The notes beneath the pieces were generated by a model. It was not told the DNA's origin. It ran no database searches and worked only from the letters and a program-made list of their open reading frames with translations. The position numbers were made by a program, and so were the translations under genes. Below are positions 31,319 through 62,783 of a stretch of DNA of 64,000 nt, one piece after another (the first letter of the stretch is position 1; every line of letters begins with the position of its first letter). Where the stretch lies: contig CAXXNF010000001.1 in NCBI GenBank assembly GCA_963666365.2, positions 217,281-281,280 on the forward strand, in the 5' to 3' direction. The DNA is from Syntrophales bacterium. Its GTDB lineage: Bacteria > Desulfobacterota > Syntrophia > Syntrophales > UBA2210.

Positions 31319-31690
31319 CTACTGATTAAGCGGGCGGCAGTAATCATTGACCACTATTCCACCGGGAAAGGTCACACATATCTTGGGATCAAGGTTAAAT
31401 TGCCTGTTAAGTGCGATAGGAAACCTTCTGATACATTCGTCTATCCAGTAGTCAGGAGTGGTATAGTTGTTTGCACAATGCCATGGTCTGCATCCAAGTC
31501 CGAATCTCCAACAGGTGGGGGTCTCAATTGTTCCTATTTCGACTGATTGCTGAACAATAGTTGTCGACGGACTAAGACCAAATCCCCATTGGAGTACCCA
31601 ACATCTTGCTGTATCAGGACAGTCAGCACCCGCTATCGCAGGAACGATGAAAAGAACGAGCACCATGCATGCAACCGCGATCCATTTCAT
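31319..31690 (-). CDS. Secreted 8-Cys protein, paralog B (unknown family)
   Basis: The ATG at 31690 (MKWIAVACMVL...) aligns with the paralog A start. The longer track ORF start (MTRRHT) is really the AAGGAGG RBS read as codons. Confidence 0.6.
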   Translation of the reverse strand: MKWIAVACMVLVLFIVPAIAGADCPDTARCWVLQWGFGLSPSTTIVQQSVEIGTIETPTCWRFGLGCRPWHCANNYTTPDYWIDECIRRFPIALNRQFNLDPKICVTFPGGIVVNDYCRPLNQ

Positions 31691-31746
31691 TGTGTGCCTC
31701 CTTGTCATGCTCCCGTAGTCTTGCTTCCTTATCGCCGTCGGGTGTG

Positions 31747-31854: not shown

Positions 31855-32253
31855 TCACCGCTCGCTGATGCACTGAAGTACGTAGATCGCTTCCGTCAAA
31901 TCAATGCGGTCGTCGGCATTCACGTCGCCCCCGATAAAAGTCAACCCCGTATCCATACTGCAGGCGAGTTTGGCCGCCACGATCGCGTCCTCAAGTCCGA
32001 TAACACTATCGGCGTTCACGTCTCCGGGTATAGATCCCTCCACAAGGCGGAGGATATTCCCCATGGCGTCGTAGGTATAGCGGATGATCTTGCCGTTGTC
32101 GTAATTGACCCCCGTGAGCCTTCCCGCCTGGTCGTAGGTATAGGTAACGGTTCCGGCCCCGGCAGCAAGGGGCGCCCCGATACACAGAATCAAAAGAACA
32201 GCCACCCAGGTTTTTCCCGACCTGCTTGCATTCCTCGCTTCACTCCTGAACAT
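31855..32253 (-). CDS. Small secreted protein with two YD repeats plus a dockerin-like double Ca-loop module
   Basis: Signal peptide, then TYTYDQAGRLTGVNYDNGKIIRYTYDAMGNILRL, GDVNADSVIGLEDAIVAAKL and GDVNADDRIDLTEAIYVLQ. The ATG at 32253 has a GAGG RBS. It lies 79 nt downstream of the RHS gene. Confidence 0.65.
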   Translation of the reverse strand: MFRSEARNASRSGKTWVAVLLILCIGAPLAAGAGTVTYTYDQAGRLTGVNYDNGKIIRYTYDAMGNILRLVEGSIPGDVNADSVIGLEDAIVAAKLACSMDTGLTFIGGDVNADDRIDLTEAIYVLQCISER

Positions 32254-43800: not shown

Positions 43801-46800
43801 TTTGCGCCGGCGACATTTTGAAGCCGCAGGCCCGTGACTGAAGAGGCATCGGAAAAAATATTTTTGCCGATCACCAGATCCGCCGCGTTCAGGAGGGAAG
43901 TCCCCGCAACGGCAATCCCGTAGAAGGAAGAATTCCACAGGCCATCGAAGGAGTTCGACGACACATCGATATGAGACGACCCGTTGTCGATGGAGAATTC
44001 GATCCCCCCTTCGCAACCCGCAAAGACATTCTCCCGTATCACGATATTTTTCAGGAGCCCTTCCCCGGCAATTGCATTCGCCGACGTCCTGTTAAAGGTG
44101 CACGCCTCTACGGTAATATTTTCGCAGTCGCTAAGGAACAACGGCGTCTCCGTTCCAGAAAAATCCATGTTCTCTATGTCGAAATTGTTGCAACCGGAAA
44201 GGGAAATTTTTTCGATTGCCGAATCGCGCAGCCTTCCGGAGACAGTTGCCGAAAAATCCATATTCGAAAGCGTCAGCTCCCTACAGGTTACCCCCTCAAG
44301 AGAAACGCCCGAGGCACCGGAGATTGACAGGCCGTAATCCGGAAACGCGCAGTCTGTCAGCAAAAGCGGCCCGGCCTTTACCAGGGTGATCGATTGGCCG
44401 TCCAGATCGACGGCAAAATCGCTTGCGGGCGGAGAATAATTCGGAATCAGCGGTGTCGTTCCGTAGACAAGGCTGACCTTCGCCCCCATCTGCGTTCCGG
44501 CAAGCGAGAGTGTGCCTCCTTCGGCAACCCTTATGGGCAGGCTGTCGGTATTGCTGAAAACCGCATCGCCGACACTCAGCGCTCCTCCCGACGCCACTTC
44601 GACGGCGGGCGATGTATAGGGGGACGGAACCCAGACGATATCGCCCCCGTTAACGGTCAGCAAATCGCCCGCTTGAATATCCCTGAGATCGGCGGCATAT
44701 ACGGGACCGGTCGCGTCAAAGGTTCCCCGTGGCCGCAGGATCACTTTTTCGGATACCTTGTTGCCCCCGTCGACAAGGAGCGTCGCATATATATCCTGCG
44801 GCCCGAAATAGCCGGAAGTGTCCCAGGTCATACGGGCGATACCCCGGCTTCCCCACCGGCTGACGTCAAGGGGCGCATCGTTGATGCACTGTCCCCCGTT
44901 CGCGGGATCGCCGAAATAGATGTCAACGGTATAGTCGTCATTGCCGAAAAGGCCTTCGATAAAGATCTTCAGTTCAAGCGCCGTTCCCGCCGGGACGTCA
45001 GCCGCCCCGTAGACGCGATCGTCCTTCTCCTTTCCCGCCGCAATGCAATAGGATCCCGTCCCCGAATAATCGCTCCAGGCGTTGCCTGTGGAGTTCCCGT
45101 CATCCCACGCATTCGCGCCGCCGTCGTAGGCCGCCGCTCCTCCCTCCACACCGTTCTTCAGGAACAAAGCGTTTGAAAAGATGCGGTTTCCGTATCCGCG
45201 CTCCACCCGCAGGGCGTTGGCAAGTGTCTCGTATATGCGGTTCCCCTCTATAACATTATTGTTGCCGTTATTTATCGCAATGCCGCAGCAGCTCCACTGA
45301 ATGTGGTTTCCCCCGATGGTGCAGTTGTCCGCGCCGTCGAGGATAATGCCCGTAACGGTGCGCAGAATCCGCATATTATAGAGTCTGACGCCCGATGCGG
45401 CGATTCGGAAGCCGTAGTCGAGATAGTGTTCTCCCTCCGGCCTCGCCGCGACGGCAGGATTTTCCCGGTCCCGGCAGAACAGGGTAAGATTCGGGGTGGC
45501 GATCCGCACCGGTTCCTCATAATATTCCCCGTCGCCTTTCGGAAAGATTTCAATGGAATCCCCCGGCGTCGAGGCATCGACGGCCGCCTGGATCGTGGCG
45601 TATTGACGGCCGGGTCCGACAGTATGTGTGGCCGTTTCCGGCAGATCGTCAGCGACATAGGCGGAGAGATCCCCGATGGACGGGACAGGATACCTGTCGA
45701 CTCCAGCCGTCTCATCACTCTCCGAAGGGGCCGTAAATACCAAGGTTTGCACTCGCGGGCGGGTATACTCGGTGACCGTATCGGCATGAAGGGCGGCAAG
45801 TCCTTCCAGTCCGCGCAGTTCACCCATCCAGGCCAGCAAGATGGCTTCGTAGAGCATGTCGTTCGTGCCGTTTCCATCGACATCGCCGACATCGGCCAGG
45901 GGGTCCATTCCCGCCGTGGACAAGGCACTCAGGATCCACTGCTGTATCCATCCATAGCCGAGGCGGGTCTTTGTCGTGGACGCCTTGACGTGCACCGCTC
46001 CGGCGACGGCTTTCCCCGCGGAAAGGGAGGCTCTGAGCGCATCCACGGCTGCCATATTGGCTTCCGCCGTTGCCCCGTAGGAAAACCCAGCATCAATGAG
46101 GGCAACGGCATCGGACAGGTTTTTGATCGCCGCGCCGGTCTGATCTGCCGGTTCGACAAGATTTGACCCGACCTCGTAGAGTTCATCCCCCCATGAATCC
46201 TGCCAGGCCCGATAGAGGTAGAGTTCCGCGGCGCCTCGGTAAAAATTGTCCATCATGCCCGAAAGACCCGCAAGCGTTGATGTGGCGAGGAAGGCCGCAT
46301 TATTTTTAAAGGTCTGAAGCGGCATCAGCAGCGGAGGAACTCCCAGGTATTCCATGGCATATTCGACCAGTGCGCCCGCTCCCTCTTTTGCAAGATTATC
46401 AAAGCTTACCTTTTCCTTCGCCTCCTTCATGAGAAAGACCGCCCCGTCATCCGCGTTCCTGATCGCTTCAATCTCCTTTATTTTCTGAAAATCTTCCGCA
46501 TAGAGGGGACCCAGGGTCTTCATATCGACATGGTCGGAATAGGGCGTCATGTTTTGAAACATTTCGAAATGGTGATACATGGCGCTCCGGTACTGCTGAT
46601 AGGCAAAAAGAAAATAGGAGAGTTTGTGCCGCAAAACGAAAAGATCGGCCTGAGATAATTGGAGTCCCGGATATGGATCAGCACAGGCATCTTCGCAAAC
46701 CGTATTACCTGCGGAGGAGGTGCTGTAAGGGATATCAGCGGCGCAGTTCGCGCAGCCGCTATGACATGCTGCAGGAACGTACCGAGGCAGCCAGAGGATT

Positions 46801-46856
46801 AGGCACAGGAAAAGGATAAGACGTACCCTGGGAAGAGAATGGCCGGGTATTCTCAT
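37833..46856 (-). CDS. 3007-aa secreted/surface multidomain protein: helical N-region, right-handed beta-helix (CASH/NosD-like) segments, 4 DUF1566-like domains, about 12 Ig-like InlB-B-type repeats, a DUF11-like repeat and a C-terminal dockerin-like module
   Basis: N-terminal signal peptide. Beta-helix stretches include NCTIGGNHIQ..NNVIEGNRIY..GNRIFSNALF. The DUF1566 hallmark DWR(L/V/M)P..(E)L.SL occurs four times. Many roughly 70-aa repeats follow Y(T/I)(V/I)TA.AG.GG.I.P.G...V..G....(Y/F).I..D.G(Y/F).(I/V).DV.VDG.S.G....Y.F..(V/I)..DH.(I/V)EA.F. A DUF11-like LTYTITVTNRGPDDAQSV is present. The protein ends GDFNNDGEVGLADSVILLQVIAG...GDVNGDGKAGVEDLIYTLRKSAG. Confidence 0.85.
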   Translation of the reverse strand: MRIPGHSLPRVRLILFLCLILWLPRYVPAACHSGCANCAADIPYSTSSAGNTVCEDACADPYPGLQLSQADLFVLRHKLSYFLFAYQQYRSAMYHHFEMFQNMTPYSDHVDMKTLGPLYAEDFQKIKEIEAIRNADDGAVFLMKEAKEKVSFDNLAKEGAGALVEYAMEYLGVPPLLMPLQTFKNNAAFLATSTLAGLSGMMDNFYRGAAELYLYRAWQDSWGDELYEVGSNLVEPADQTGAAIKNLSDAVALIDAGFSYGATAEANMAAVDALRASLSAGKAVAGAVHVKASTTKTRLGYGWIQQWILSALSTAGMDPLADVGDVDGNGTNDMLYEAILLAWMGELRGLEGLAALHADTVTEYTRPRVQTLVFTAPSESDETAGVDRYPVPSIGDLSAYVADDLPETATHTVGPGRQYATIQAAVDASTPGDSIEIFPKGDGEYYEEPVRIATPNLTLFCRDRENPAVAARPEGEHYLDYGFRIAASGVRLYNMRILRTVTGIILDGADNCTIGGNHIQWSCCGIAINNGNNNVIEGNRIYETLANALRVERGYGNRIFSNALFLKNGVEGGAAAYDGGANAWDDGNSTGNAWSDYSGTGSYCIAAGKEKDDRVYGAADVPAGTALELKIFIEGLFGNDDYTVDIYFGDPANGGQCINDAPLDVSRWGSRGIARMTWDTSGYFGPQDIYATLLVDGGNKVSEKVILRPRGTFDATGPVYAADLRDIQAGDLLTVNGGDIVWVPSPYTSPAVEVASGGALSVGDAVFSNTDSLPIRVAEGGTLSLAGTQMGAKVSLVYGTTPLIPNYSPPASDFAVDLDGQSITLVKAGPLLLTDCAFPDYGLSISGASGVSLEGVTCRELTLSNMDFSATVSGRLRDSAIEKISLSGCNNFDIENMDFSGTETPLFLSDCENITVEACTFNRTSANAIAGEGLLKNIVIRENVFAGCEGGIEFSIDNGSSHIDVSSNSFDGLWNSSFYGIAVAGTSLLNAADLVIGKNIFSDASSVTGLRLQNVAGAKVHDNVFDDLDCGMSLIGCNSVVSWHNSFIYCSAIDDGGNQWSFEGWGNYWYDHVCSNPDPVHPGVCLDAYGNDNGVSDEYPLTGKGAPAGVVEIPQTAYWDGLADHYSCYDDDGYSIDCAGSGQDGDARAGVAWPEERFTELGDGTVRDNLTGLVWYGDGNPVGSHYPAFDGDGNADGRVTWHHALAFVAGVNDGTFGDCAAGYNDWRLPNVNELISLMENDEFTTAQFIGPRGFNNVPADALYWSSTCDNNADFVYAWGADFGETRRIDRFFRDEIGVSSPDTLHVLLVRGGQENDRDPLYPANVAKTGQGASHSAASGDDGDTRRGVAWPDPRFVDNGDGTVTDALTGLVWMKNASPAATAGYSGGTLTWRQALDFVAALNDETYYNHEIYPNLNAGYADWRLPNFKELESLVDFSRYDPSLAEGHPFINVAGSCWSSTNVLLDPSMAYYVSFSKGRFGRSEKANEYALWPVRGGRVEKGNDPVIGVNRSVRDFGSVDVGADPSYDHVLEVTIGNSGAGDLTLGPVYLFGGDRDDFYFLYHSPPSNAVIMPSQQIQCSVGFAPLSRGVKKTFLIITSDDPHYPSVTVPLTGTGIAHTLTVDFSGNGSGEVEISAEGYDTIRAREDTELVLNPGTLVRLYPLADEGTAAGQWSGACTGTGSATLTMDGDTQAVITFTLRTLEIVSSIRDTEYHVAGGRIDPAGTTTVNYGGDSTYRITPDTYYNIADLRVDGLSAGVSDSYIFTGVTEDHTIEAVFELQKFIVTGTAGAHGTISPSGPQVVDATYGITFDITPDEGYHVADVTDNGLSVGAVSSYEIGIVEEDHIVEATFAVTTYSVTPCAAPHVVFTPSETQTVPHGGSCSFSVDAETGYAIADVCVNGVSIGAVDAWTFDAVTSDQTICAVAVEVHRITATAGYQGAIAPAGVSSFPAGSDATFVITPDVGYEIDDVRIDGVSIGAVDSYTFSDIHADHTIDVSFRIRTFTVDIAAGAGGAVIPAGSRVIEYGDSLVIAITPDEGFETAQVVVDGTDRGPVAGSLLLSYIEADHVVEVVFHEISYPITPAFSGQRTSYAQGDDGDLHVGPPWPEPRFTDNGDGTITDHYTGLMWIGRIDLFGDLAPTWQDTFALVQSLNVSSQNYVNYGYSASYNDWRVPNVFEMTSLVMNGRESNVVEWLNSFGFSLYSMAFWTSTSFHSSSASAYRCSLGASAALSTIAKTNHYFFLPVRGRGSGSAKIPKTGQTESYATGDDGDLQRGLAAPAVRFKENGDGTVTDSMTGLQWLKKADPVGVLYPSYDTFGNCRNEGRVSWQMALDFIAGINDGTYRVSESPCTDWRMPAIYELASLFDVSKIYSEGGTIPGMPFEDVRSMYWSSTSRPADPATVAWVGNFWEMRIDAMSKEADMNGANVWPVRTVGLSDMEVSLSADADPVLAGEALTYTITVTNRGPDDAQSVRIVDTFPQDALFISADAGEGTVNTSDGEAQFVLSGLAAGASATVTLTLKAPRGADSLMNDATVKGPNIDPDESNNAVHMDTEVTRIYTFTLVREGNGGGVVLSIPGGIECGDLCSAEFLAGTEVTLLATPDETSNFGGFTGVESWSGTTCTISVDRDREIGAVFTLKRYTVTAIAGAGGTIWPPGASEYDHGTSGVVYTIDADWGHYIEDVHVDGVSQGPIDSYTFDDIASDHTVEATFGTVQYTISADAGSGGWIDPSGEAPVYHGGDLTFTIGADEGFHVSSVIVDGLVLPEPVDTYTFIEVTNDYHSIAAWFEANRYIISATAGAGGYIDPAGDSTVTHGGEITYYMGAGANYHLEDVLVDGLSVGPVETYVFSNVNEGHAIEARFALNEHEITPVSSGRGKILPSEPVYLEDHESYMWMFVPDPGASLIDVAVDGMSVLAAVIPADPLYGMPAHYTLSDVIADHVIEAVFSSEYIRGDFNNDGEVGLADSVILLQVIAGTVPDDCFVTGDVNGDGKAGVEDLIYTLRKSAGLP

Positions 46857-51159: not shown

Positions 51160-51513
51160 CTCGCTCTCATATGCGTTCCTTGAAATGTGCTACTATAGGG
51201 CATTGTTCATTGTTTTCAAAGCATTTTATTCTCACTTTTTTCAAGGAATAGAAAACGTATAGACAGGGCATCACAATAATGTTATGTAGGAAATAATATT
51301 TTTTCAAAAGCACGTTAACAATTGAGCATGGCAATTGCAACGATGGTCTGAGTCATTCATATCACGCATACAGGACCGATCTCAGGCATGTTACCTGCGC
51401 TGCTCTTCTGAAGGGAAGTTTTCATACTTCATATCGACTTAAAATAAAATCTGTTTAGTACCATATAGTAACTATCGATGGCCTGAATCACGCCATCCTG
51501 AGGAGTGTATGAT

Positions 51514-54500
51514 ATGAACAGGCCTCTCAGCATAGTTCTTTCTTGTTTGATTCTTGTAATTTGCGTACTTGCAGCACCCTCTGCACCTCTGTTCGCCGAG
51601 CCCGGCTCGCTGCTCTGGAGATCGCCCCTGTCGAGCGGCGGTCCGTGCACCTGGTCCACACCCGTGGTAACAGGAAGCCGGTGCTATGTACAGGATCAGG
51701 AGGGCGGCATATACTGCTTTAACACGGCCGACGGTGAACAGCTCTGGTACAAGAAATTATCGGGCGGCTGGCCGACCGCGTCGCCTGTGTATAAAAACGG
51801 CAAGTTGTTCGTGTTTGCCGGAAGCGGCATCGATTTCGACGTTGTCGATACCGTCTACCGTCTCGATCCCCTCTCTTGCGGGGCTGTCGAAACGCAATTT
51901 ACGCCGGCGCCGGGCGTCGCCATCAGCGCAATGTCTCCTGCCGTTTCGGATACGATGGTCTACGTTCCCACATCATCGACCCTTTATGCCATCGATGCGG
52001 GCACCTTTGAAAAAGCATGGGAGATGTCAGTTCCGGGGGCAAGCGTCATTATCGGGGGAGAAATCCTCTATGTCCTCGCCGACAAGCTCTACGGCGTTGA
52101 TGCGCAAACCGGGAAAGAATACTGGCGCATGGACCCGCCCCACAGCACGGGATTCGATATGGGAGCCCTGTCGGGGGATATTTTGGTGGCGTATACAAAA
52201 TATTCGGGTTCGCCCGACTACGTATCCAAACTCCACGCCTTTCGACTGAGTCCGGAAAATATGGGTGCCTCCTTGCTGGCCACCTCCGTTGATCCTCCCT
52301 CATTGCTCTGGTCTTTCACGCCCACCGACCACGCATATTCGGATTGGTCCCCACCGGCCATAGACGCCAGCATATCGAGGGTGTATGCAGTAAACAGAGC
52401 CGGATATTTGTGGGCCTTCGATCTTGAAGGCGACGGGACTCTTCTCTGGAACAGGCCTGTCAGGGGAAGCGGAATGGCATCGGCAAAACCGGTCGCTCTT
52501 GACGGCAAGGTCTATATACAAGCGGCGGGAACTTCCGGAGAATACGGCACTCCTCACTGGCTTGTCTGTTATGATGTAAATGAACTGGAGAAGTTCTTGG
52601 AATATGATGATCCAAATGACCCGGATACGTTCTGGCAATCGGAATCGTTGGTGGATCTATGGAATGCAAACGCGACCCCGGAGGATATAGAACGACGGGC
52701 CCAATGGGAGGCGGACGGGTTCACCATCGGTGAGATGAAAACCGCCTGGGGCTCCCCGGCGGTCGTGAACGGCAAAGTTTATATAGCCACGGACCACGGC
52801 GGCGGAGTACTCGCCTTCGAAGGCGAACCGTCGGAGCACAGCTGGTACATGATCAGCCAGAATCCGCACCTTACCGGGTCAGTTGACGGGTCTCAGAAAG
52901 ACTTTTACAATTCCCCCTCCACTCTCGGCCTGTCCGTAGACAACGCCACCACCGCCTTCGGCTTCAGCGATCAGCCCCCCATGAGGATCGGGCTGCCCGA
53001 TTACCAGGTCAACACGGCAACGCTCAACCTTGTGTTGCAGGGAACCCTGTTCTGGATGAAAACCAGAGGCCCCTCCGTTGCCGCCGCACTGGTGTACAAC
53101 GCAGACCATACACTGCATTCCGGCCTGTTCGGTCACGGATGGCGCTTCGCCTATGAATCCACCGCAACCATCGGCTGCTCCAGCCACGCCATAGATATCC
53201 GCAAGGGAAGCGGGCAGGTCCTCACCTTCACATCGACCGAAGACCTGACCGCCGATCCCGACACCCTTGACTACCCTCTGGAACTTACCCCCCCCACGGG
53301 TAATTTCGACCGCGTCACCGTGTATGAAGGGTACTGCGAATGGTTTGAAAAATCCTCCCGGTTTACCTACCGGTATGACAAATCCACCCTGGAGGGATCG
53401 CAAATCTATTACCTCACCTCCATCACCGACCGGAACGGAAACCGCATTGACGTGGAGGTGGACCGGACAAACGGACACATCACCTCCGTCACCGGGCCGG
53501 CGGACCGCCAACTGACGATGACCTATGATGCCGACAGCCGCTGTACTCAGATTGCGACCCCGGCTTTCGATTCCCGATCCCTTGCCTTCGAATATGACGA
53601 AGAGGGGTTTCTCACGGCGGTTACCGACATGGCGGGCTACCGCAGCACCTACGAATACGATGACGACGGATACATGACCAGGATGACCCGGGACAGCCAC
53701 TGGGCGACCTTCGAATACGCATCCCGGGGATCGGGCCTGGGGAAATACGTGACGAAGGTCACGGACAGCGATGTCGGGTGGACCCTCTATGAACTCCTGA
53801 AGCAGGACCCGGTGGAGGTGCGGCGTACCAGCCGGCAGGGCAAGGCGAGGATTTTCAAAAGCAACGACGGCCTGACCGGGTCGGTAACGGACCCCCTGGG
53901 CAACGTCAGCACCATCGGATACGAGAACAAGCTGCCCGTCAGCTTCAAGGACAGAAACGGGCACATAGAGCGTCTGGTATACGACAACCGGGGAAATGTC
54001 ACCACACAGATAGACGCCCTGAACCGTTGGACCCGGTTTTCGTACAACAGCGATGACACGCTTCACTCCATGACCAACCCGCTTTCCGAAACCTGGTACT
54101 ACGCATACGACTCGCATCAGAACCTGACACGAGTCACCTCGCCCGAAGGCAACATCACACAGATCAGCTACGACAGTTACGGTCAGGTCAATAAAATTAC
54201 CGATCCCAACGGCCATGTCACCGATTATTATTACGACATCTGGGGCAATCTGAAAACCGTGGAAGATCCCCTGGGCAATGTCACCCGGTTCGGCTATGAC
54301 GGATCCCATCTCCATTGCATATACATCACCGATGCACGGGATAATGAAAAACAGATACTCTACGACGACAACGACCGCCTGAGCCGCGTCTATTATGGGC
54401 CGGACTACGAAGGACCCAGCGTACGCAACGAGTTTGACGCCTTCTGGCAAATCAGGGCGACCGACGAAAACGGCAACCAGACACGGGTCGAGCGAAACCG

Positions 54501-56442
54501 CTTCGGCTACATCACCATGTTGAGACCGCCCCTGTGGAACGACAGTTTCTACGAATACGACAGGGACAACAATCTGATCAAAGCCACCGATCCGTTGAGA
54601 AGAGCCACCTACAACGGCTACGACAAGAACGGACGGCTTTATATGACAAGAGACGCCCGGAATAACACCGTATACCGCTACTACGACAAGGAAGGAAACC
54701 TGGTCCGGCTCAGAGACCAGCGTGCCAACGAAACCCGGTTCGATTATGACTCGAACGACCGGTTGACGGACACTACCGACCCGCTGGCACGAACCATCAC
54801 CTACACCCGTGACGCTCTGGGCCGCATTGCGGAACAGACAAACAAACGGGGGCAGAAGGTGGCGTTCTCCTACGACGGAGAAGGCCGCATGACATCAAAA
54901 CGATATGACGGCACGGAGGAAGCGGCATACACCTACGATGCCGCCGGTAACCTTACCCAAATGATCGATGACTGGGGAACCACCACATATGACTACGATG
55001 AGCGAAACCGGGTAACCGCAATCACCTATCCGGACACTATGACCCTTTCTTTTACCTACGACGAACTGGGCAACTGCAGTTCCCTCACCTACCCCGACGG
55101 CCAGACGGTACGCTACACCTACGACGATGTGAACCGGATCACGATACCGCGGGGCCTGAGAAACGGCGCCAATATCGAAATACGGCCGAACAGGGAAAAG
55201 CCGAACCGGATCACCGCCATGAACTGGGGGGAGACTCACTCCGTCACAGGCGACTATGACCCCGCCGCCCGTTTGATCACACAGACCCGCTCAAACGGCG
55301 CCGTGACCGAGTTTTCCTACGACGCCAACGACCGGGTAACGGGGATCAATCACAAAAAAGGGGACACCCCCCTTCTCGAACTGAATTATACCTATGACGA
55401 CGCGGACAACCTGCTTTCCGAACTTTCCTCAGATCCCGTCACACCGGCCGTGAGCGATGCCTCCCTGGCAGCGACTGTCGACGCCGCCAACCAAATCAGC
55501 CGGCTGGGAAGCGACACGTACACCTTCGACAGCGACGGCAATCGAATCGGAGTAAGCAGTGGTCAATTCGCCGCCGTCTACGACCCGGAAAACCATGCCA
55601 CGCAGATCACCCGCAACGGGGTCGCCGCCGCCTGCACCTACGACGGACAGGGCATGATGGTGCAGCGCACAGTGGACGGCGAGACCACCACCTACCACTA
55701 CGACGATGCGGGACGCCTCCTTTTTGAAACGGATAGTTCGGGCGCCGTGAGCAACACCTATATATACATGGGCAGAAAACCGGTTGCCATGGGAACAAAG
55801 GACAGCGGATACAGGTTCTTTCATTTCAACAACCTCGGAAACACGCTCGCCCTGACCGACGCGACCGGTTCGGTCATCAAACGGTACGCCTACCAGCCTT
55901 ACGGGGCCGCGACCGGCAGTGGGTCAGAGATTTCGAACCTCTTCACCTTTGTGGGCGCTCACGGCGTCATGGATCTGGGCGACGGCCTGTTTCTGATGAA
56001 ACGCAGGCTCTACGACGCCCGGAGCGGCAGGTTCCTGCAGACCGACCCCATCGGCATCGCCGGCGGGATCAATCTTTACACCTATGCCGAGAACAATCCC
56101 CTGCGCTACATCGATCCCGAAGGCACCTCAATCCTCCTTGCTTACGCGGCAGGTGCAGCTATAGTCGCTCTCGCAGTGGTCATTTTGACACCAGCCGACG
56201 ACACAAAAGATGCCGACCAGACGACAGATGCCGGCTTTCACGAACATGCCGAGCAGGCAGCTGAAAATAGGGTGAAGGGTGCACAAAAAGTGAAAGAAGC
56301 CAAAGGTACGGGAAACAAGTTCAGAGCCTTTACGGACGCGTACTATGAATCCAAAGAAGATACTCGTAAATTGGCTCCAAAGGCGGGTGAGGAGGCAGTA
56401 GAGAAAGTCGGAAAGGGGTACTTACGGGTACTAAGGCGTTAG
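51514..56442 (+). CDS. Sec-signal RHS/YD-repeat protein with an N-terminal PQQ/BamB-like beta-propeller and a short TM-containing C-terminal tip (copy 1)
   Basis: ATG at 51514 with an AGGAG RBS, and signal peptide MNRPLSIVLSCLILVICVLAAPSAPLFA. PQQ-like repeats include GGIYCFNTADGEQLWYKK and LYGVDAQTGKEYWRMD. The DUF6531-like block is YQVNTATLNLVLQGTLFWMKTRGPSVAAALVYN. About 40 YD repeats follow. The core end is RLYDARSGRFLQTDPIGIAGGINLYTYAENNPLRYIDPEGT. Confidence 0.9.
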   Translation: MNRPLSIVLSCLILVICVLAAPSAPLFAEPGSLLWRSPLSSGGPCTWSTPVVTGSRCYVQDQEGGIYCFNTADGEQLWYKKLSGGWPTASPVYKNGKLFVFAGSGIDFDVVDTVYRLDPLSCGAVETQFTPAPGVAISAMSPAVSDTMVYVPTSSTLYAIDAGTFEKAWEMSVPGASVIIGGEILYVLADKLYGVDAQTGKEYWRMDPPHSTGFDMGALSGDILVAYTKYSGSPDYVSKLHAFRLSPENMGASLLATSVDPPSLLWSFTPTDHAYSDWSPPAIDASISRVYAVNRAGYLWAFDLEGDGTLLWNRPVRGSGMASAKPVALDGKVYIQAAGTSGEYGTPHWLVCYDVNELEKFLEYDDPNDPDTFWQSESLVDLWNANATPEDIERRAQWEADGFTIGEMKTAWGSPAVVNGKVYIATDHGGGVLAFEGEPSEHSWYMISQNPHLTGSVDGSQKDFYNSPSTLGLSVDNATTAFGFSDQPPMRIGLPDYQVNTATLNLVLQGTLFWMKTRGPSVAAALVYNADHTLHSGLFGHGWRFAYESTATIGCSSHAIDIRKGSGQVLTFTSTEDLTADPDTLDYPLELTPPTGNFDRVTVYEGYCEWFEKSSRFTYRYDKSTLEGSQIYYLTSITDRNGNRIDVEVDRTNGHITSVTGPADRQLTMTYDADSRCTQIATPAFDSRSLAFEYDEEGFLTAVTDMAGYRSTYEYDDDGYMTRMTRDSHWATFEYASRGSGLGKYVTKVTDSDVGWTLYELLKQDPVEVRRTSRQGKARIFKSNDGLTGSVTDPLGNVSTIGYENKLPVSFKDRNGHIERLVYDNRGNVTTQIDALNRWTRFSYNSDDTLHSMTNPLSETWYYAYDSHQNLTRVTSPEGNITQISYDSYGQVNKITDPNGHVTDYYYDIWGNLKTVEDPLGNVTRFGYDGSHLHCIYITDARDNEKQILYDDNDRLSRVYYGPDYEGPSVRNEFDAFWQIRATDENGNQTRVERNRFGYITMLRPPLWNDSFYEYDRDNNLIKATDPLRRATYNGYDKNGRLYMTRDARNNTVYRYYDKEGNLVRLRDQRANETRFDYDSNDRLTDTTDPLARTITYTRDALGRIAEQTNKRGQKVAFSYDGEGRMTSKRYDGTEEAAYTYDAAGNLTQMIDDWGTTTYDYDERNRVTAITYPDTMTLSFTYDELGNCSSLTYPDGQTVRYTYDDVNRITIPRGLRNGANIEIRPNREKPNRITAMNWGETHSVTGDYDPAARLITQTRSNGAVTEFSYDANDRVTGINHKKGDTPLLELNYTYDDADNLLSELSSDPVTPAVSDASLAATVDAANQISRLGSDTYTFDSDGNRIGVSSGQFAAVYDPENHATQITRNGVAAACTYDGQGMMVQRTVDGETTTYHYDDAGRLLFETDSSGAVSNTYIYMGRKPVAMGTKDSGYRFFHFNNLGNTLALTDATGSVIKRYAYQPYGAATGSGSEISNLFTFVGAHGVMDLGDGLFLMKRRLYDARSGRFLQTDPIGIAGGINLYTYAENNPLRYIDPEGTSILLAYAAGAAIVALAVVILTPADDTKDADQTTDAGFHEHAEQAAENRVKGAQKVKEAKGTGNKFRAFTDAYYESKEDTRKLAPKAGEEAVEKVGKGYLRVLRR
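54789..56099 (+). repeat. 1311-bp tract apparently 100% identical to 60451-61761
   Basis: Same sense translation, and identical antisense track ORFs (54895-55239 = 60557-60901; 55429-55824 = 61091-61486). Spot checks of several lines are identical at a constant offset of 5662. Confidence 0.8.
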
Positions 56443-56523
56443 TAAAGGATGTCATAGCGGGAGCATCAGCTGTGACAGGGGTCTCGGGATTACACCTAAT
56501 CCGTAAAGCTCCGGAAAAATAAT

Positions 56524-56548
56524 GCATCGCATCGCATTGCATTGCATA
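56524..56548 (+). repeat. Pentanucleotide tandem repeat (GCATY)x5 in the leader of the YD-dockerin gene
   Basis: GCATC GCATC GCATT GCATT GCATA read directly. The paralogous site 62174-62188 has only GCATC GCATT GCAAA. Confidence 0.6.
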
Positions 56549-56576
56549 CATGCTTCATCACACAGGGAGTGATATT

Positions 56577-56960
56577 ATGAAGAGACGCATCCACTCAGTT
56601 TTACTCATAGCGGCCATGTGTTTCATCTGCACTGCCGCAGCGGCTGCCACCTACACCTATGACGAGCTGAACCGTCTCACGAAAGTCGTCTACGGCTCCG
56701 GCAGCGACGGGACCTTGTCGTACATCGAATACACCTACGATACGGCCGGCAACATCACCCTCATCAGTTCCCTCGGGAATATATTATATGGCGATGTCGA
56801 CAACAACCGGACAGTCGATCTGGCCGATGCCATCATGTCGCTTCGGATCGTAACCGGCCAGAGCGTCTCTCCTCCCAACGTCCGGAAAGCGGCGATCAAC
56901 AACGACCAACGGATCGGCCCTGAAGAGACGATATACATTATGAAGAAAATATCCGAGTGA
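56577..56960 (+). CDS. Small secreted protein with two YD repeats plus a dockerin-like module (copy 1 of the tandem pair)
   Basis: The ATG at 56577 has an AGGGAG RBS. MKRRIHSVLLIAAMCFICTAAAAA is followed by TYTYDELNRLTKVVYGSGSDGTLSYIEYTYDTAGNITLI, GDVDNNRTVDLADAIMSLRIVTG and INNDQRIGPEETIYIMKKISE. Confidence 0.65.
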   Translation: MKRRIHSVLLIAAMCFICTAAAAATYTYDELNRLTKVVYGSGSDGTLSYIEYTYDTAGNITLISSLGNILYGDVDNNRTVDLADAIMSLRIVTGQSVSPPNVRKAAINNDQRIGPEETIYIMKKISE

Positions 56961-57253
56961 CTCCTGTAGCTGCCATCCTTCAAAAATTAATTAATCCGGT
57001 TCATCATTTCCAACCTTTCAAAGCCAATAAGTACGCAAGAACCGGATGAACCTGTTTTTTTCTGCCTTTCGGCGTCTTGCGGGAACAAATAAATCAGTTA
57101 CTTAGAAGTAGACAGGACATCACAATAATGTTAGGTTGAAAGCAGTTTTTTTTCAAAGCTACCTCACATCGCGCGAATATAAAAACTGTTTTTTTCGGTA
57201 GCATACAGCAACTATCGATGGCCTGAATCACGCCATCCTGAGGAGTGTGTGAC

Positions 57254-60200
57254 ATGAACAGGCCTTTCGCTGTAATTCTCTCTTGTGTGACTCTTGTAAT
57301 TTGTGTACTTGCAGCAACCTCTGCCCCTCTCCTGGCCGAACCCGGCACGCTGCTCTGGAGATCGCCCCTGTCGAGCGGTGAACCAAGCACCTGGTCCACT
57401 CCAGTGGTGATAGGCGACAGGTGCTATGTGCAGGATCAGGCTGGCGGCATCTACGGTTTTCGAACAACCGACGGGGAGCAGCTCTGGTATAAAAAGGTTT
57501 CCGGAGGCTGGCCGGTTTCGTCGCCCGTCTACAGAAACGGCAAATTGTTCATGATGGCCAGCAGCAACAATGAAATTGACAGCAAGGATCCTTATGTTGT
57601 CGATACTGTCTACCGGCTCCACCCCGACTGCGGGCGTATTGAAAAGCAGTTTACCCCTGAGGTCGGCGTCTCCATCAATGCAATGTCTCCGGCCGTATCC
57701 GATTCCCTGGTGTACATACCCACCTTTTCAAAACTCTACGCCATCGATGTCAATACCTTCGAACCGGTCTGGGAGATGGCCGTCACCGGGGCAAGCGTCA
57801 TCATCGGCGGCGACATCCTCTATGTGCTTGCCGATAAACTCTATGGCGTGAATGCCGAAACCGGAGAAGAATACTGGCACATGGATGCCCCCCACAGTAC
57901 CGGATTCGACATGGGGGCGCTCTCCGGGGATATTCTGGTGGCCTTTACAAAGTATTGTTGGACGGACTATTTCTCAACGCTGCATGCCTTCAGGCTGCAT
58001 CCCGAAAATATGGAGATTCCCCCTCCCACAGAGACTCCGCCCTACCGGATCGACCCTCCGGAAGTTATCTGGTCTTATGCCTATCGCACCGGGCTTCTGG
58101 AGACCGCAGGGTCGTCCGACTTCTCTCCCCCCGCAATCGACAGCAGCACGGCAACCGTGTATGGGATTAACAGATCCGGGGTTCTGAAAGCATTCGCCCT
58201 CGAAGGCAATGGAGAACCGCTCTTCATGATGGGTGTCAGGGATAATGGCCTGGCTTCGGCCAAGCCGGTGGCCCTTGACGGAAAGATTTACATACAGGTA
58301 GGATCCGGCACCTCCTATTATCTTCGCTGTTTTGATGCACGTAATCTCCCTGGCGTCCCTCCCGTACTATGGGCGTCAGAATCGCTGGGGAGTGGCGGCG
58401 AGATGCAGGTTGCCTGGGGATCACCTGCTGTAGTGGATGGCAGAATTTATATCGCCACCGACCATGGCGGCGGCCTGCTGTGTTTTGAAAGCGATCCTTC
58501 GGAACACAGCTGGTACATGCTCACCCAGAACCCCAATCTGACAGGGTCTGCGGGCGGCTGGAAAAAGGATTTCGGCAATTACCCTGCCACCCTCGGTCTG
58601 GCCACAGACAACGAAAATACCGCCTTCGGCTTCAGCGATGAGCCGCCCATGAGAATCGGGCTGCCCGATTACCAGGTGAACACGGCTACGCTCAACCTTG
58701 TATTGCAGGGAACCCTGTTCTGGATGAAAACCCGCGGCCCTTCAGTTGCCGCCGCCCTGGTGTACAACGCCGACCACACCGCACCATCGGGCCCTTTCGG
58801 TAACGGCTGGCGATTTGCCTATGAATCCACCGTGGAAATCGACTGCAGCGGTAAAAACGCGGAATTACGAAAAGGCTCCGGCCAGGTCATTACTTTTTCA
58901 TCCAGGAAAGATCTTTTATCTGATACGCTTTCCTACCCCCAGAATCTGTCGCCCCCCACAGGCAATTTCGACGGTTTTATCGCCTATAACGGCTACTATG
59001 AATGGTTCGAGAAATCCTCCCGCTTTACTTACCGGTACGATTTTTCAACCATTCACGGACCGGCGCTTGCCTACCTGACCGCCATTACCGATCAGAACGG
59101 CAACCGTGTGACGCTGGATGTGGACCTCGCCACTGGAAAGATCAGCAGGATCACCGGGCCGGCAGAGCGCCAATTGACGCTGACCTATGACGATAACAGC
59201 CGCTGCATTCAGATCACAACCCCCGCCTTTGATTCCCGGACGATACGATTCGAATATGACGAAGAGGGGTTTCTCACGGCAATCAACGACATGGCCGGTT
59301 ACCGAAGCATCTACGAATACGATGACGACGGCTACATGACCAAGATGACCCGGGACAGCCACTGGGCATCCTTCGAATACGCATCCCGGGGATCGGGCCT
59401 TGGGAAATACGTGACGAAGGTCACGGACAGCGATGTCGGGTGGACCCTCTATGAACTTTTGAAGCAGGACCCGGTGGAGGTACGGCGCACCAGCCGGCAG
59501 GGCAAAGCGAGAGTTTTTAAAAGCAACGACGGCCTGACCGGGTCGGTGACAGACCCCCTGGGCAACGTCAGCACCATCGGCTACGAGAACAAGCTGCCCG
59601 TCAGTTTCAAAGACAGAAACGGGCACATAGAGCGGATGGTATACGACAACCGGGGAAATATCATCACACAGATAGACGCCCTGAACCGTTGGACCCGGTT
59701 TTCGTACAACAGCGATGACACGCTTCACTCCATGACCAACCCGCTTTCCGAAACCTGGTACTACGCATACGATTCGCATCAGAACCTGATACGAGTCACC
59801 TCGCCCGAAGGCAACATCACACAGATCAGCTACGACGAATACGGTCAGGTCAACACAATCATCGACCCCAACGGCCATGTCACCAATTATTATTACGACA
59901 GCTACGGCAATCTGAAAACCGTGGAAGATCCCCTGGGCAATGTCACCCGGTTCGGCTATGACGGATCCAAGCTCCACTGCATATTTATCACCGATGCACG
60001 GGGGAACGAAAAACAGATACTCTACGACGACAACGACCGCCTGAGCCGCGTCTATTATGGGCCGGACTACGAAGGACCCAGCGTACGCAACGAGTTTGAC
60101 GCCTTCTGGCAAATCAGGGCGACCGACGAAAACGGCAACCGGACACGGGTCGAGCGGAACCGCTTCGGCTACATCACCAGGCTGAGTCCGCCCCTGTCGA

Positions 60201-62095
60201 ACGACAGTTTCTACGAATACGACAGGGACAACAATCTGGTCAAGACCACCGATCCGTTGAAAAGAACCACCTACAACGGCTACGATAAGAACGGACGGCT
60301 TTATATGACAAGAGACGCCGGGGGACACACCGTATACCGCTATTACGACAAGGAAGGCAACCTGGTCCGACTCAAAGACCAGCGTGAAAACGAAACCCTC
60401 TTCGATTACGACTCGAACGACCGGTTGACGGAAAACACCGACCCGCTGGAACGAACCATCACCTACACCCGTGACGCTCTGGGCCGCATTGCGGAACAGA
60501 CAAACAAACGGGGGCAGAAGGTGGCGTTCTCCTACGACGGAGAAGGCCGCATGACATCAAAACGATATGACGGCACGGAGGAAGCGGCATACACCTACGA
60601 TGCCGCCGGTAACCTTACCCAAATGATCGATGACTGGGGAACCACCACATATGACTACGATGAGCGAAACCGGGTAACCGCAATCACCTATCCGGACACT
60701 ATGACCCTTTCTTTTACCTACGACGAACTGGGCAACTGCAGTTCCCTCACCTACCCCGACGGCCAGACGGTACGCTACACCTACGACGATGTGAACCGGA
60801 TCACGATACCGCGGGGCCTGAGAAACGGCGCCAATATCGAAATACGGCCGAACAGGGAAAAGCCGAACCGGATCACCGCCATGAACTGGGGGGAGACTCA
60901 CTCCGTCACAGGCGACTATGACCCCGCCGCCCGTTTGATCACACAGACCCGCTCAAACGGCGCCGTGACCGAGTTTTCCTACGACGCCAACGACCGGGTA
61001 ACGGGGATCAATCACAAAAAAGGGGACACCCCCCTTCTCGAACTGAATTATACCTATGACGACGCGGACAACCTGCTTTCCGAACTTTCCTCAGATCCCG
61101 TCACACCGGCCGTGAGCGATGCCTCCCTGGCAGCGACTGTCGACGCCGCCAACCAAATCAGCCGGCTGGGAAGCGACACGTACACCTTCGACAGCGACGG
61201 CAATCGAATCGGAGTAAGCAGTGGTCAATTCGCCGCCGTCTACGACCCGGAAAACCATGCCACGCAGATCACCCGCAACGGGGTCGCCGCCGCCTGCACC
61301 TACGACGGACAGGGCATGATGGTGCAGCGCACAGTGGACGGCGAGACCACCACCTACCACTACGACGATGCGGGACGCCTCCTTTTTGAAACGGATAGTT
61401 CGGGCGCCGTGAGCAACACCTATATATACATGGGCAGAAAACCGGTTGCCATGGGAACAAAGGACAGCGGATACAGGTTCTTTCATTTCAACAACCTCGG
61501 AAACACGCTCGCCCTGACCGACGCGACCGGTTCGGTCATCAAACGGTACGCCTACCAGCCTTACGGGGCCGCGACCGGCAGTGGGTCAGAGATTTCGAAC
61601 CTCTTCACCTTTGTGGGCGCTCACGGCGTCATGGATCTGGGCGACGGCCTGTTTCTGATGAAACGCAGGCTCTACGACGCCCGGAGCGGCAGGTTCCTGC
61701 AGACCGACCCCATCGGCATCGCCGGCGGGATCAATCTTTACACCTATGCCGAGAACAATCCGATAAAAAATATCGACCCAGAAGGCACCTCAATCCTCCT
61801 TGCTTACGCGGCAGGTGCAGCTATAGTCGCTCTCGCAGCGGTCATTTTGACACCAGCCGACGACACAAAAGATGCCGGCGATACGTCATTTTTGGATGAT
61901 GCCAGCCAGACATTTGAGAAAAATCAGCGGAATGAACAAAAAGTGAGAGAAGCCGCAAATACGGGAGACCGGTACCGTGTCGTGGCGGAAAGTTTACATG
62001 AGCAAAAAGAAGATATTCGCAGATTGGCTCCAAAGGCGGGTGAGGAGGCAGTAGAGAAAGTCGTAAAGGGAACATTTCGGGCACTAAGGCAGTAA
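57254..62095 (+). CDS. Sec-signal RHS/YD-repeat protein with an N-terminal PQQ/BamB-like beta-propeller and a short TM-containing C-terminal tip (copy 2)
   Basis: Paralog of 51514-56442. The N-terminal about 470 aa are diverged, the middle is near-identical and the last 1.3 kb of the shell is identical. The core end is ...NNPIKNIDPEGT, followed by a different tip. Confidence 0.9.
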   Translation: MNRPFAVILSCVTLVICVLAATSAPLLAEPGTLLWRSPLSSGEPSTWSTPVVIGDRCYVQDQAGGIYGFRTTDGEQLWYKKVSGGWPVSSPVYRNGKLFMMASSNNEIDSKDPYVVDTVYRLHPDCGRIEKQFTPEVGVSINAMSPAVSDSLVYIPTFSKLYAIDVNTFEPVWEMAVTGASVIIGGDILYVLADKLYGVNAETGEEYWHMDAPHSTGFDMGALSGDILVAFTKYCWTDYFSTLHAFRLHPENMEIPPPTETPPYRIDPPEVIWSYAYRTGLLETAGSSDFSPPAIDSSTATVYGINRSGVLKAFALEGNGEPLFMMGVRDNGLASAKPVALDGKIYIQVGSGTSYYLRCFDARNLPGVPPVLWASESLGSGGEMQVAWGSPAVVDGRIYIATDHGGGLLCFESDPSEHSWYMLTQNPNLTGSAGGWKKDFGNYPATLGLATDNENTAFGFSDEPPMRIGLPDYQVNTATLNLVLQGTLFWMKTRGPSVAAALVYNADHTAPSGPFGNGWRFAYESTVEIDCSGKNAELRKGSGQVITFSSRKDLLSDTLSYPQNLSPPTGNFDGFIAYNGYYEWFEKSSRFTYRYDFSTIHGPALAYLTAITDQNGNRVTLDVDLATGKISRITGPAERQLTLTYDDNSRCIQITTPAFDSRTIRFEYDEEGFLTAINDMAGYRSIYEYDDDGYMTKMTRDSHWASFEYASRGSGLGKYVTKVTDSDVGWTLYELLKQDPVEVRRTSRQGKARVFKSNDGLTGSVTDPLGNVSTIGYENKLPVSFKDRNGHIERMVYDNRGNIITQIDALNRWTRFSYNSDDTLHSMTNPLSETWYYAYDSHQNLIRVTSPEGNITQISYDEYGQVNTIIDPNGHVTNYYYDSYGNLKTVEDPLGNVTRFGYDGSKLHCIFITDARGNEKQILYDDNDRLSRVYYGPDYEGPSVRNEFDAFWQIRATDENGNRTRVERNRFGYITRLSPPLSNDSFYEYDRDNNLVKTTDPLKRTTYNGYDKNGRLYMTRDAGGHTVYRYYDKEGNLVRLKDQRENETLFDYDSNDRLTENTDPLERTITYTRDALGRIAEQTNKRGQKVAFSYDGEGRMTSKRYDGTEEAAYTYDAAGNLTQMIDDWGTTTYDYDERNRVTAITYPDTMTLSFTYDELGNCSSLTYPDGQTVRYTYDDVNRITIPRGLRNGANIEIRPNREKPNRITAMNWGETHSVTGDYDPAARLITQTRSNGAVTEFSYDANDRVTGINHKKGDTPLLELNYTYDDADNLLSELSSDPVTPAVSDASLAATVDAANQISRLGSDTYTFDSDGNRIGVSSGQFAAVYDPENHATQITRNGVAAACTYDGQGMMVQRTVDGETTTYHYDDAGRLLFETDSSGAVSNTYIYMGRKPVAMGTKDSGYRFFHFNNLGNTLALTDATGSVIKRYAYQPYGAATGSGSEISNLFTFVGAHGVMDLGDGLFLMKRRLYDARSGRFLQTDPIGIAGGINLYTYAENNPIKNIDPEGTSILLAYAAGAAIVALAAVILTPADDTKDAGDTSFLDDASQTFEKNQRNEQKVREAANTGDRYRVVAESLHEQKEDIRRLAPKAGEEAVEKVVKGTFRALRQ
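60451..61761 (+). repeat. 1311-bp tract apparently 100% identical to 54789-56099
   Basis: See 54789-56099. Confidence 0.8.
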
Positions 62096-62216
62096 AGGGT
62101 GTCATATCGGAAACTTAAGCTGCGACAGGGGCCCCGGGACTAAACCTAATCCGGGAAGCTCTGGGAGAATAATGCATCGCATTGCAAACATGCTTCATTA
62201 CACACGGGGAAATATT

Positions 62217-62600
62217 ATGAATAGACGAATCCAATTAGTTCTACTTATAGTGGCCATGTGTTTTACCTGCACTGCCGCAGCGGCAGCAACCTATACCTAC
62301 GATAAGCTGAACCGGTTGACTAAGGTCGTCTACGGCTCCGGCAGCGACGGGACCTTGTCGTACATCGAATACACCTACGACGCGGCCGGAAACATCACCC
62401 TCATCAGTTCCCTCGGGAACGTATTGTATGGCGATGTCGACAACAACCGGAAAGTCGATCTGGCCGATGCAATTATGTCTTTCCAGATCGTAACCGGCCA
62501 GAGCATCTCTCCCCCGGAAGTACGGAAAGCGGCGATCAACGATGACCGGCAGATAGGCCCGGAAGAGGCGATCTACATTCTGCGCAAAATATCTGAGTGA
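62217..62600 (+). CDS. Small secreted protein with two YD repeats plus a dockerin-like module (copy 2)
   Basis: The ATG at 62217 begins MNRRIQLVLLIVAMCFTCTAAAAA. It is followed by TYTYDKLNRLTKVVYGSGSDGTLSYIEYTYDAAGNITLI, GDVDNNRKVDLADAIMSFQIVTG and INDDRQIGPEEAIYILRKISE. Confidence 0.65.
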   Translation: MNRRIQLVLLIVAMCFTCTAAAAATYTYDKLNRLTKVVYGSGSDGTLSYIEYTYDAAGNITLISSLGNVLYGDVDNNRKVDLADAIMSFQIVTGQSISPPEVRKAAINDDRQIGPEEAIYILRKISE

Positions 62601-62783
62601 TCTTCTTCTCTACCATCCTTCAAAAATTAATTACTCCGGCTCACCATTTTTTTATTATATTTTTAGTATTACTATTTCTTTTCTCCTATGTTTTGCTACT
62701 AAAGTGGTGTAGAAGAACAGGTGCGCAACGCCTTGAAATTATCTATGACAGTCGGAAAAAGAAATACTAAAACAGGAGGAAAC

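Follow-up and report, generated by a model that had tools for sequence, protein, structure and literature searches.

A secreted YD-repeat mini-protein encoded behind RHS genes: a candidate adaptor for the RHS shell

In a 64,000-nucleotide stretch of DNA from a Syntrophales bacterium (GenBank assembly GCA_963666365.2, contig CAXXNF010000001.1, positions 217,281 to 281,280 of the forward strand; hereafter the window), each of three RHS genes is followed on the same strand by a gene for a small protein that combines a signal peptide, two YD repeats and a dockerin-like module. We refer to these proteins as mini-A, mini-B and mini-C. Their genes lie immediately 3′ of the RHS genes, in the position expected of a cognate immunity gene, and the locus thus raises the question of whether they provide immunity or serve some other function. 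Our preferred answer, to which we give about an even chance, is that a mini-protein is not an immunity protein but a secreted accessory subunit of the upstream RHS protein, an adaptor that grips the RHS shell with its YD repeats as a handle and uses its free C-terminus to anchor or sort the complex. The domains involved are known already; what appears to be new, judged from sequence, is a previously unrecognised accessory component of the RHS system.

Three mini-proteins and their family

We delimited mini-A (127 amino acids; 56577-56960, forward strand; stop codon at 56958-56960) from the list of open reading frames, Pfam matches, alignment, substitution rates, and AlphaFold and Foldseek results. 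It comprises a signal peptide (residues 1-23, 56577-56645), two YD hairpin pairs (residues 24-70, 56646-56786) and a dockerin-like two-loop module (residues 71-127, 56787-56957). By sequence reading, a Shine-Dalgarno sequence, GGGAG, lies at 56565-56569, 7 nucleotides (nt) before the ATG at 56577. Mini-B (127 amino acids; 62217-62600, forward strand) is 98% identical to the single copy in a related contig, L001, and mini-C (132 amino acids; 31855-32253, reverse strand) has the same architecture. In alignments, mini-A is 85% identical to mini-B and 32% identical to mini-C, in agreement with the initial annotation, which had described one architecture shared by the three proteins despite an identity of about a third between the distant copies. 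The gap from the end of the RHS gene to the start of the mini gene is 134 nt for A, 121 nt for B and 79 nt for C.

All three proteins match Pfam RHS_repeat (PF05593) above its gathering score, with E-values of 3e-7 for mini-A, 7e-8 for mini-B and 2e-9 for mini-C; the TIGR01643 YD repeat model scores 32 bits for mini-C and falls below its cut-off for mini-A. Read from the sequence, each N-terminus has basic residues, a hydrophobic stretch and then a run of small residues (AAAAA or AAGAG), with the first Y-x-Y-D strand only 1-3 residues past that run and a second YTYD..GN repeat later. The early observation that a signal-peptide-like start leads straight into a YD strand is therefore upheld. The minis are not complete RHS cocoons: with two YD repeat units, predicted to form four strands, they fall short of a closed shell, and they lack both the PxxxxDPxG autoproteolysis motif of the RHS core and a cargo.

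Pairwise comparison with orthologues from other assemblies gave ratios of non-synonymous to synonymous substitution rates (dN/dS) of 0.12-0.23, indicating purifying selection. Given these values and the Shine-Dalgarno sequence, we conclude that the minis are real coding genes rather than chance open reading frames. A scan for terminators 3′ of mini-A found nothing convincing; a T-run at 57055-57061 is preceded only by an inverted repeat with a long loop.

Single-sequence searches returned about a dozen close homologues, and a word-indexed profile search, with an alignment that included three distant minis, returned 1442 proteins at E ≤ 1e-3. Almost all of the best 120 of these are 105-170 amino acids long and carry PF05593, and many also carry PF00404; where named, they are called "hypothetical" or "YD repeat-containing protein". 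The initial annotation had allowed that these reading frames might be untranslated or poorly conserved, a concern removed by the size of this family together with the selection and ribosome-binding evidence above. In 109 family members, the first Y.YD stands at median position 30 and the first YD strand begins a few residues past the predicted cleavage site; 98% of them carry a strongly hydrophobic N-terminal 10-mer. When the full-length family alignment was run exhaustively as a profile against 1.84 billion representatives, giant RHS proteins dominated the result: the best 150 matches were all 829-7290 amino acids long, with multiple YD matches. That search is hence uninformative on the size of the mini family. 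Apart from the generic YD repeat, NCBIfam has no model that covers the family.

Linkage to RHS genes is consistent. For all of the close homologues (L001-L011), the immediate upstream neighbour is an RHS gene in the same orientation, while the next gene downstream differs or is convergent. The same was found for six of six more distant members on long contigs (L088-L094), where the upstream RHS gene is whole, split in two or broken by insertion sequences. RHS-mini gaps in the dockerin-type contexts examined are 5-190 nt. An association with RHS genes elsewhere, left as a check by the initial annotation, is thus seen in every mini-family context examined. At positions 891-8366 of L093, the RHS gene is interrupted by two copies of an insertion sequence element (HTH_33 + DDE_3) and the mini gene is intact. 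The closest metagenomic A-type homologue (L046, 6998-7400; 61% identity by tblastn) is disrupted past the YD part, by in-frame stops or a frameshift, and is either a pseudogene or the product of an assembly error.

Type I dockerins consist of two tandem EF-hand-like calcium loops of 12 residues, with ligands at positions 1, 3, 5, 9 and 12, each followed by a helix. The loop motif GDV(D/N)......L.DAI, reported at the outset, is present in all three minis and is near-invariant at G72, D73, L82, D84, A85 and I86; loop 1 of mini-A and mini-B is canonical (D-V-D-N-N-R-T-V-D-L-A-D). The accompanying description of the second loop as degenerate holds for mini-A and mini-B and fails for mini-C, whose loops, GDVNADSVIGLEDA and GDVNADDRIDLTEA, have D or N at positions 1, 3 and 5 and D or E at position 12, with Gly at position 9 of loop 1. 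The second loop is also canonical in close relatives such as P0004. Several relatives (L012, L064, L049, L016 and P0074) exceed the Pfam cut-off for Dockerin_1 (PF00404). Compared with the PDB, the family profile matches the CelS dockerin (1daq/2mte; E = 4e-4), and hhalign aligns it with the Bacteroidaceae mini-protein of L012, whose dockerin is over the Pfam cut-off, at 99% probability (E = 5e-18), and with a bona fide Clostridium dockerin at 76% probability (E = 2e-5).

An AlphaFold model of mini-A from a 116-sequence alignment reached a mean predicted local distance difference test score (pLDDT) of 81.3, with strands at residues 24-28, 34-39, 46-54 and 60-70 and helices at 82-92, 102-105 and 115-126; an earlier run with 13 sequences (pLDDT 56) was discarded. 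The best Foldseek match in the PDB was the dockerin 6kge_B (CaDoc0917), with a target-normalised template modelling score of 0.81, a root-mean-square deviation (rmsd) of 2.0 Å over 60 columns and a probability of 1.00. Foldseek also matched segments of RHS and Tc shells, including RhsA (7q97) and TccC2 (6l7i; rmsd 1.5 Å over 46 columns). The E-values are weak (best 8.5e-3) because both domains are small. The predicted structure thus matches both YD strands and a dockerin fold, where the initial annotation had foreseen that hairpins or calcium loops might fail to appear. We conclude from sequence and model that the C-terminal module is probably dockerin-like, a divergent relative of the dockerins rather than a Pfam-threshold member.

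Partners, shells and toxin tips

Immunity proteins are as polymorphic as their toxins, and are expected to change when the toxin changes. The genes behind RHS genes do not follow this pattern. Between loci L066 and L089, the partner proteins are 63% identical and the shells 73%, and the toxin tips are unrelated. Four Bacteroidales loci (L012, L091, L049 and L047) share 65-73% identity in the YD handles and 74-80% in the shells, and all four tips are unrelated. The best local scores between tips in these two sets are only 25-34, where partners or handles are 60-73% identical. Across phyla, the same partner architecture follows RHS genes with entirely different tips of 137-273 amino acids. Conservation of partner and shell alongside unrelated tips argues against an immunity role, and bears out the initial suspicion that the minis do not behave like immunity proteins. 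We note that this argument rests on the absence of co-variation with the tip, and not on secretion of the partner. We conclude from these sequence comparisons that the partner goes with the conserved part of the locus and not with the polymorphic cassette.

The RHS proteins of the four Bacteroidales loci have classic polymorphic C-terminal tips. In two of these loci, L012 and L091, no candidate immunity gene is visible, since what follows the YD partner is an unrelated gene or one on the opposite strand. These Bacteroidales may carry their immunity genes at another site, or may direct the toxins at cells other than kin.

A wider pattern emerged when genome and metagenome collections were scanned: the conserved element is an N-terminal signal peptide with two YD repeats, and the C-terminus is variable. 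Genes of this kind (signal-peptide-2xYD-X) follow RHS genes in about seven phyla, with hosts in Bacteroidota, Desulfobacterota (Desulfobacterales), Acidobacteriota, Binatia, Sumerlaeota, Planctomycetota (Scalindua) and Pseudomonadota; leaving aside the two subfamilies of the window itself, our count is 17 independent cases next to an RHS gene. Dockerin_1 is found in the RHS-adjacent partners of L012, L064, L049 and L091, in L064 together with TSP3. Other partners end in MopE repeats and LamG (L013), in InlB B-repeats, BACON and RCC1 (L021), in eleven Big_5 domains (L075) or in short tails (L061 and L073). The partner in L024 consists of the YD handle and a FlgD_ig/Por_Secre_tail domain of the type IX secretion system (T9SS) type, and nothing else. 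From their domain matches, the variable C-termini are most readily taken as anchoring or binding modules.

As a control, we considered 20 RHS genes that had been fetched because an internal repeat matched the search pattern; one of them had such a downstream partner, indicating that the partner marks a specific subclass of RHS genes. By eye, every partner-linked RHS protein with a complete N-terminus starts like a signal peptide. The RHS protein of L024 begins with a signal peptide, and inspection of its C-terminus by eye showed no sorting sequence like those of the T9SS.

Proteins from Clostridia and similar hosts (L014, L016 and L048) combine a signal peptide and two YD repeats with He_PIG or PKD domains, with no RHS gene in the fetched flanks, and that of L016 has a strong C-terminal Dockerin_1 match (55 bits). 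In loci of this type, cellulosome-like systems may have taken up the YD handle.

The upstream RHS genes and their surroundings

RHS gene A (51505-56442, forward strand; 1645 amino acids) encodes a signal peptide, a PQQ-type beta-propeller, a DUF6531 plug, a YD shell, a PxxxxDPEG core end and 105 amino acids of cargo; its Pfam matches are RHS_repeat (E = 3e-70), PQQ_2 and DUF6531. Translation probably begins at the ATG at 51514, since the L001 orthologue begins MNRPLS. RHS gene B (57245-62095, forward strand; 1616 amino acids) is a tandem paralogue. RHS gene C (32333-37645, reverse strand; 1770 amino acids) encodes a signal peptide, a DUF6531 plug split by a PD40 propeller, a YD shell and a helical C-terminal region of about 200 amino acids. 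That length was judged by eye, as the automated motif search mislocated the core end; a core-like end was seen by eye and is accompanied by a sub-threshold Pfam RHS match. All three proteins have a signal-peptide-like start and a propeller (PQQ_2 in A and B, PD40 in C), and a Pfam scan found no domain of the type VI or type VII secretion systems (T6SS, T7SS) in them.

The shells of RHS A and B close with the canonical ...NNP....DPEG motif, and the cargo (56125-56442 in A, 61787-62095 in B) extends 102-105 amino acids past DPEG. It opens at once with a hydrophobic, transmembrane-like helix, behind which lies a charged helical region; Pfam gave no match for this cargo. Cargo with a hydrophobic start was also seen by eye in the partner-linked RHS proteins of L001, L002, L013 and L019.

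The RHS-mini unit is duplicated in tandem (51505-56960 and 57245-62600). In 50-column windows, the propellers of RHS A and B have diverged to 32-80% identity and the cargo to 54-74%, whereas the two shells do not differ at all in their C-terminal half (100% identity); an identical half-shell beside diverged propellers suggests recent gene conversion. The related contig L001 carries one RHS-mini unit, and the RND efflux genes and acyl-CoA dehydrogenase gene that flank it are those of the window.

Two other candidates for an immunity gene were set aside. The first, a hydrophobic 57-amino-acid open reading frame at 62597-62770 (forward strand) that overlaps the mini-B stop codon, has no intact counterpart after mini-A; the corresponding DNA has stops in all frames, indicating that 62597-62770 is probably AT-rich spacer and not a gene. 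The second, a 96-amino-acid open reading frame, lies 3′ of the L003-L005 copies and is absent from the window.

Just downstream of mini-C, on the same strand, lie genes for two paralogous proteins of 129 amino acids that are about 64% identical (30757-31146 and 31319-31708, reverse strand). Both have a signal-peptide-like start and many conserved cysteines; neither has a Pfam or NCBIfam match, and the fetched loci contain no homologue of either. The gene directly upstream of RHS C, also on the same strand, encodes a surface-type protein of 3007 amino acids (37833-46856, reverse strand) with beta-helix/NosD, four Lcl_C, DUF11 and InlB B-repeat domains. Lcl_C also occurs two genes upstream of the RHS gene in L090 and, weakly, within the partner protein of L047.

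An adaptor for Sec-exported RHS shells and its alternatives

In the adaptor model, Sec export and cleavage of the signal peptide would expose a free N-terminal YD unit of four strands (two hairpin pairs). This unit, without a hydrophobic core of its own, would pair along an edge strand of the cognate RHS shell and thereby become part of its YD beta-sheet, leaving the dockerin-like calcium-loop module free to tether the complex to a partner on the cell surface or in the matrix. Strand complementation with the shell, and tethering by the dockerin end, had been put forward as an inference in the initial annotation. We propose the YD unit as a handle for the shell because it is coreless and is known structurally only within YD shells. 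A separate protein would be needed because the C-terminus of an RHS protein is cargo sealed in the shell, and cannot carry C-terminal modules; the adaptor would supply anchoring or sorting modules in trans. The L024 pair fits sorting in trans, with an RHS protein that has no visible C-terminal sorting sequence and a partner made of a handle and a T9SS-type domain. Physical binding to the shell, its mode, calcium binding and the attachment target of the dockerin end are what we infer here. As a tentative extension, possible but well short of an even chance, the YD handle could be a general trans connector for Sec-exported RHS cocoons, working by strand complementation and delivering dockerin, T9SS-type, Ig, LamG or RCC1 signals in trans.

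Several observations weigh against the adaptor model or its parts. Within the window's own A-type lineage, the tips are only moderately divergent by eye, and the argument against immunity consequently rests on the wider family. For the dockerin-like end, loop 2 of mini-A and mini-B has Ala at position 1, with loss of the first calcium ligand; Pfam Dockerin_1 scores 14.9 bits for mini-A against a cut-off of 22.9, and mini-B and mini-C have no Dockerin_1 match at E < 0.1 in Pfam. With the window copies below threshold, the dockerin assignment rests on the profile, hhalign and Foldseek evidence. The predicted template modelling score of the mini-A model is 0.53, which makes the arrangement of its two domains uncertain. 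A Pfam search for Cohesin in seven large open reading frames of the window (the three RHS proteins, the 3007-amino-acid protein and three others) found none. For the handle, the mini YD unit is not clearly closer to one particular repeat of its cognate RHS protein. We discarded the idea that it is a copy of a specific RHS repeat: the best matches often lie about 340-430 residues before the RHS end and their scores are not distinct, and in this comparison RLVEGS of mini-C stands against RIQEGS in RHS C. Lastly, for a sizeable minority of signal-peptide-2xYD-X proteins, in roughly eight families, the available flanks contain no RHS gene; examples from fetched flanks are L014 and L016 from Clostridia, and L038, L041, L070 and L050-58, a gammaproteobacterial-looking series among them. 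Such loci imply that the handle may also bind something besides an adjacent RHS protein.

These proteins, with no RHS gene in the fetched flanks, support the alternative that survives best, although we consider it doubtful: the mini could act on its own as a secreted adhesin or a surface protein that binds calcium, sharing a transcript with the RHS gene and using its two YD repeats to bind carbohydrate, cell wall or another surface protein. Cooperation with the RHS protein would then be loose, for example adhesion before toxin delivery. Cellulosomal scaffoldins that carry Rhs-repeat modules, dockerins and cohesins are known, with Rhs repeats and a dockerin in one polypeptide in ScaO and ScaP of A. 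cellulolyticus and ScaP2 of C. alkalicellulosi (PMC6780208, PMC3413522), and binding of partner to RHS protein is itself something that we infer. A free-standing adhesin does not account for linkage to an RHS gene in every dockerin-type mini context examined, with such short gaps, or for the joint inheritance of partner and shell while tips are swapped. Moreover, a four-stranded YD sheet is coreless, and its sole known structural context is a YD shell.

A less probable alternative, which we regard as rather unlikely, retains contact with the shell and assigns it another purpose. The mini could be a shell cap, folding nucleator or release regulator, with hairpins that start or close off the RHS spiral in the periplasm, and thereby control folding or cargo release, and with a dockerin end that serves as a calcium switch and not as a tether. 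The synteny and the tracking of the shell support this as they support the adaptor model; in addition, the calcium-loop motifs are conserved, and Sec-exported RHS proteins have to fold outside the cytoplasm. What separates it from the adaptor model is the variable C-terminus, since T9SS-type domains, LamG, RCC1 and Ig repeats look like devices for localisation or binding rather than regulators.

We consider it very improbable that the mini is a cognate immunity protein, acting in the periplasm or membrane against a small cargo with a hydrophobic first helix. Periplasmic immunity proteins do exist for toxins that act in the periplasm, and the initial annotation overgeneralised in describing RHS immunity proteins as cytoplasmic. 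The mini also occupies the canonical immunity position, with no other conserved open reading frame after the RHS genes, and a 2026 paper reports the gene immediately downstream of bacterial teneurin-like proteins as the cognate immunity gene (PMC13018210). The immunity examples in the first part of that paper's supplementary sequence file are diverse, and none in that part is a YD or dockerin protein. Persistence of the partner (63% identity, or 60-73% for the handle) beside unrelated tips in related loci, and recurrence of its architecture after RHS proteins with entirely different C-terminal domains, are the reverse of what immunity predicts. The domains, too, are a YD repeat and anchoring modules, and the L024 relative reduces to a handle and a sorting domain. 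Finally, that the mini is a non-functional remnant, an RHS recombination fragment or chance open reading frame, as the orphan fragments that accumulate in RHS loci and the in-frame stops of L046 might suggest, is effectively refuted by conservation, given the purifying selection, the Shine-Dalgarno sequence, the largely full-length minis of conserved length and architecture among the best 120 relatives, and a signal peptide fused directly to YD repeats, which is not expected of an RHS fragment.

The closest precedent for a joint shell is TcB/TcC, in which the YD beta-sheets of different chains form one continuous shell. Like an RHS-mini pair, TcB and TcC are separately encoded YD proteins from adjacent genes, and Foldseek aligns the mini strands to shell segments of TccC2 and YenC2 with an rmsd of 1.5-2.8 Å. 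However, TcB and TcC contribute hundreds of residues each and jointly enclose the cargo, whereas the mini would give only four strands; it is Sec-secreted on its own, has a dockerin-like module and lacks a TcA-like partner, and its share in a joint shell is presumed. With type I dockerins, the mini shares a duplicated calcium-loop and helix unit, and its predicted fold superposes on CaDoc0917. It differs from cellulosomal dockerins in its non-cellulosomal context (the gene content of the window resembles Desulfobacterota loci), in having the module on a 45-residue YD handle rather than an enzyme, and in the lack of a cohesin among the seven window proteins searched.

As for RHS-associated proteins, immunity proteins of RHS and teneurin-like toxins (RhsI; PMC13018210) resemble the mini in being encoded by a small same-strand gene immediately downstream of the RHS gene; the mini differs in being secreted, in its YD and dockerin-like domains and in its conservation across unrelated toxin tips. 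T6SS Rhs accessories (EagR/DUF1795 chaperones and VgrG/PAAR adaptors) are likewise dedicated, RHS-adjacent delivery proteins. Unlike the mini, they are cytoplasmic, are usually encoded upstream, bind N-terminal prePAAR or transmembrane regions and serve the T6SS, whereas both proteins of the RHS-mini pair have Sec signal peptides and the window RHS proteins have no T6SS domain. Donor-strand complementation in chaperone-usher pili, where an exposed N-terminal strand completes the sheet of a partner, is a conceptual analogue only, with no homology. Literature searches for dockerin with YD repeat found nothing, and those for dockerin with Rhs found only papers on cellulosome scaffoldins; we found no description of an RHS gene paired with a signal-peptide-2xYD-X gene, or of the mini family.

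Work on RHS delivery has so far centred on the T6SS, the T7SS and Tc. To our knowledge, how RHS or teneurin-like capsules with only a Sec signal peptide reach the surface, are retained there and are targeted is poorly understood. The pair of an RHS protein and a YD-handle protein with interchangeable ends is a concrete candidate for the missing anchoring, export or targeting component. If the general connector role is correct, Bacteroidota could export a toxin capsule piggyback through the T9SS and attach it to the surface. The pair also advises caution in annotation, as not every small gene downstream of an RHS gene should be labelled as immunity. RHS cocoons are already being engineered as protein-delivery containers, and the YD handle might offer a small, naturally occurring tag with which to fix modules to them.

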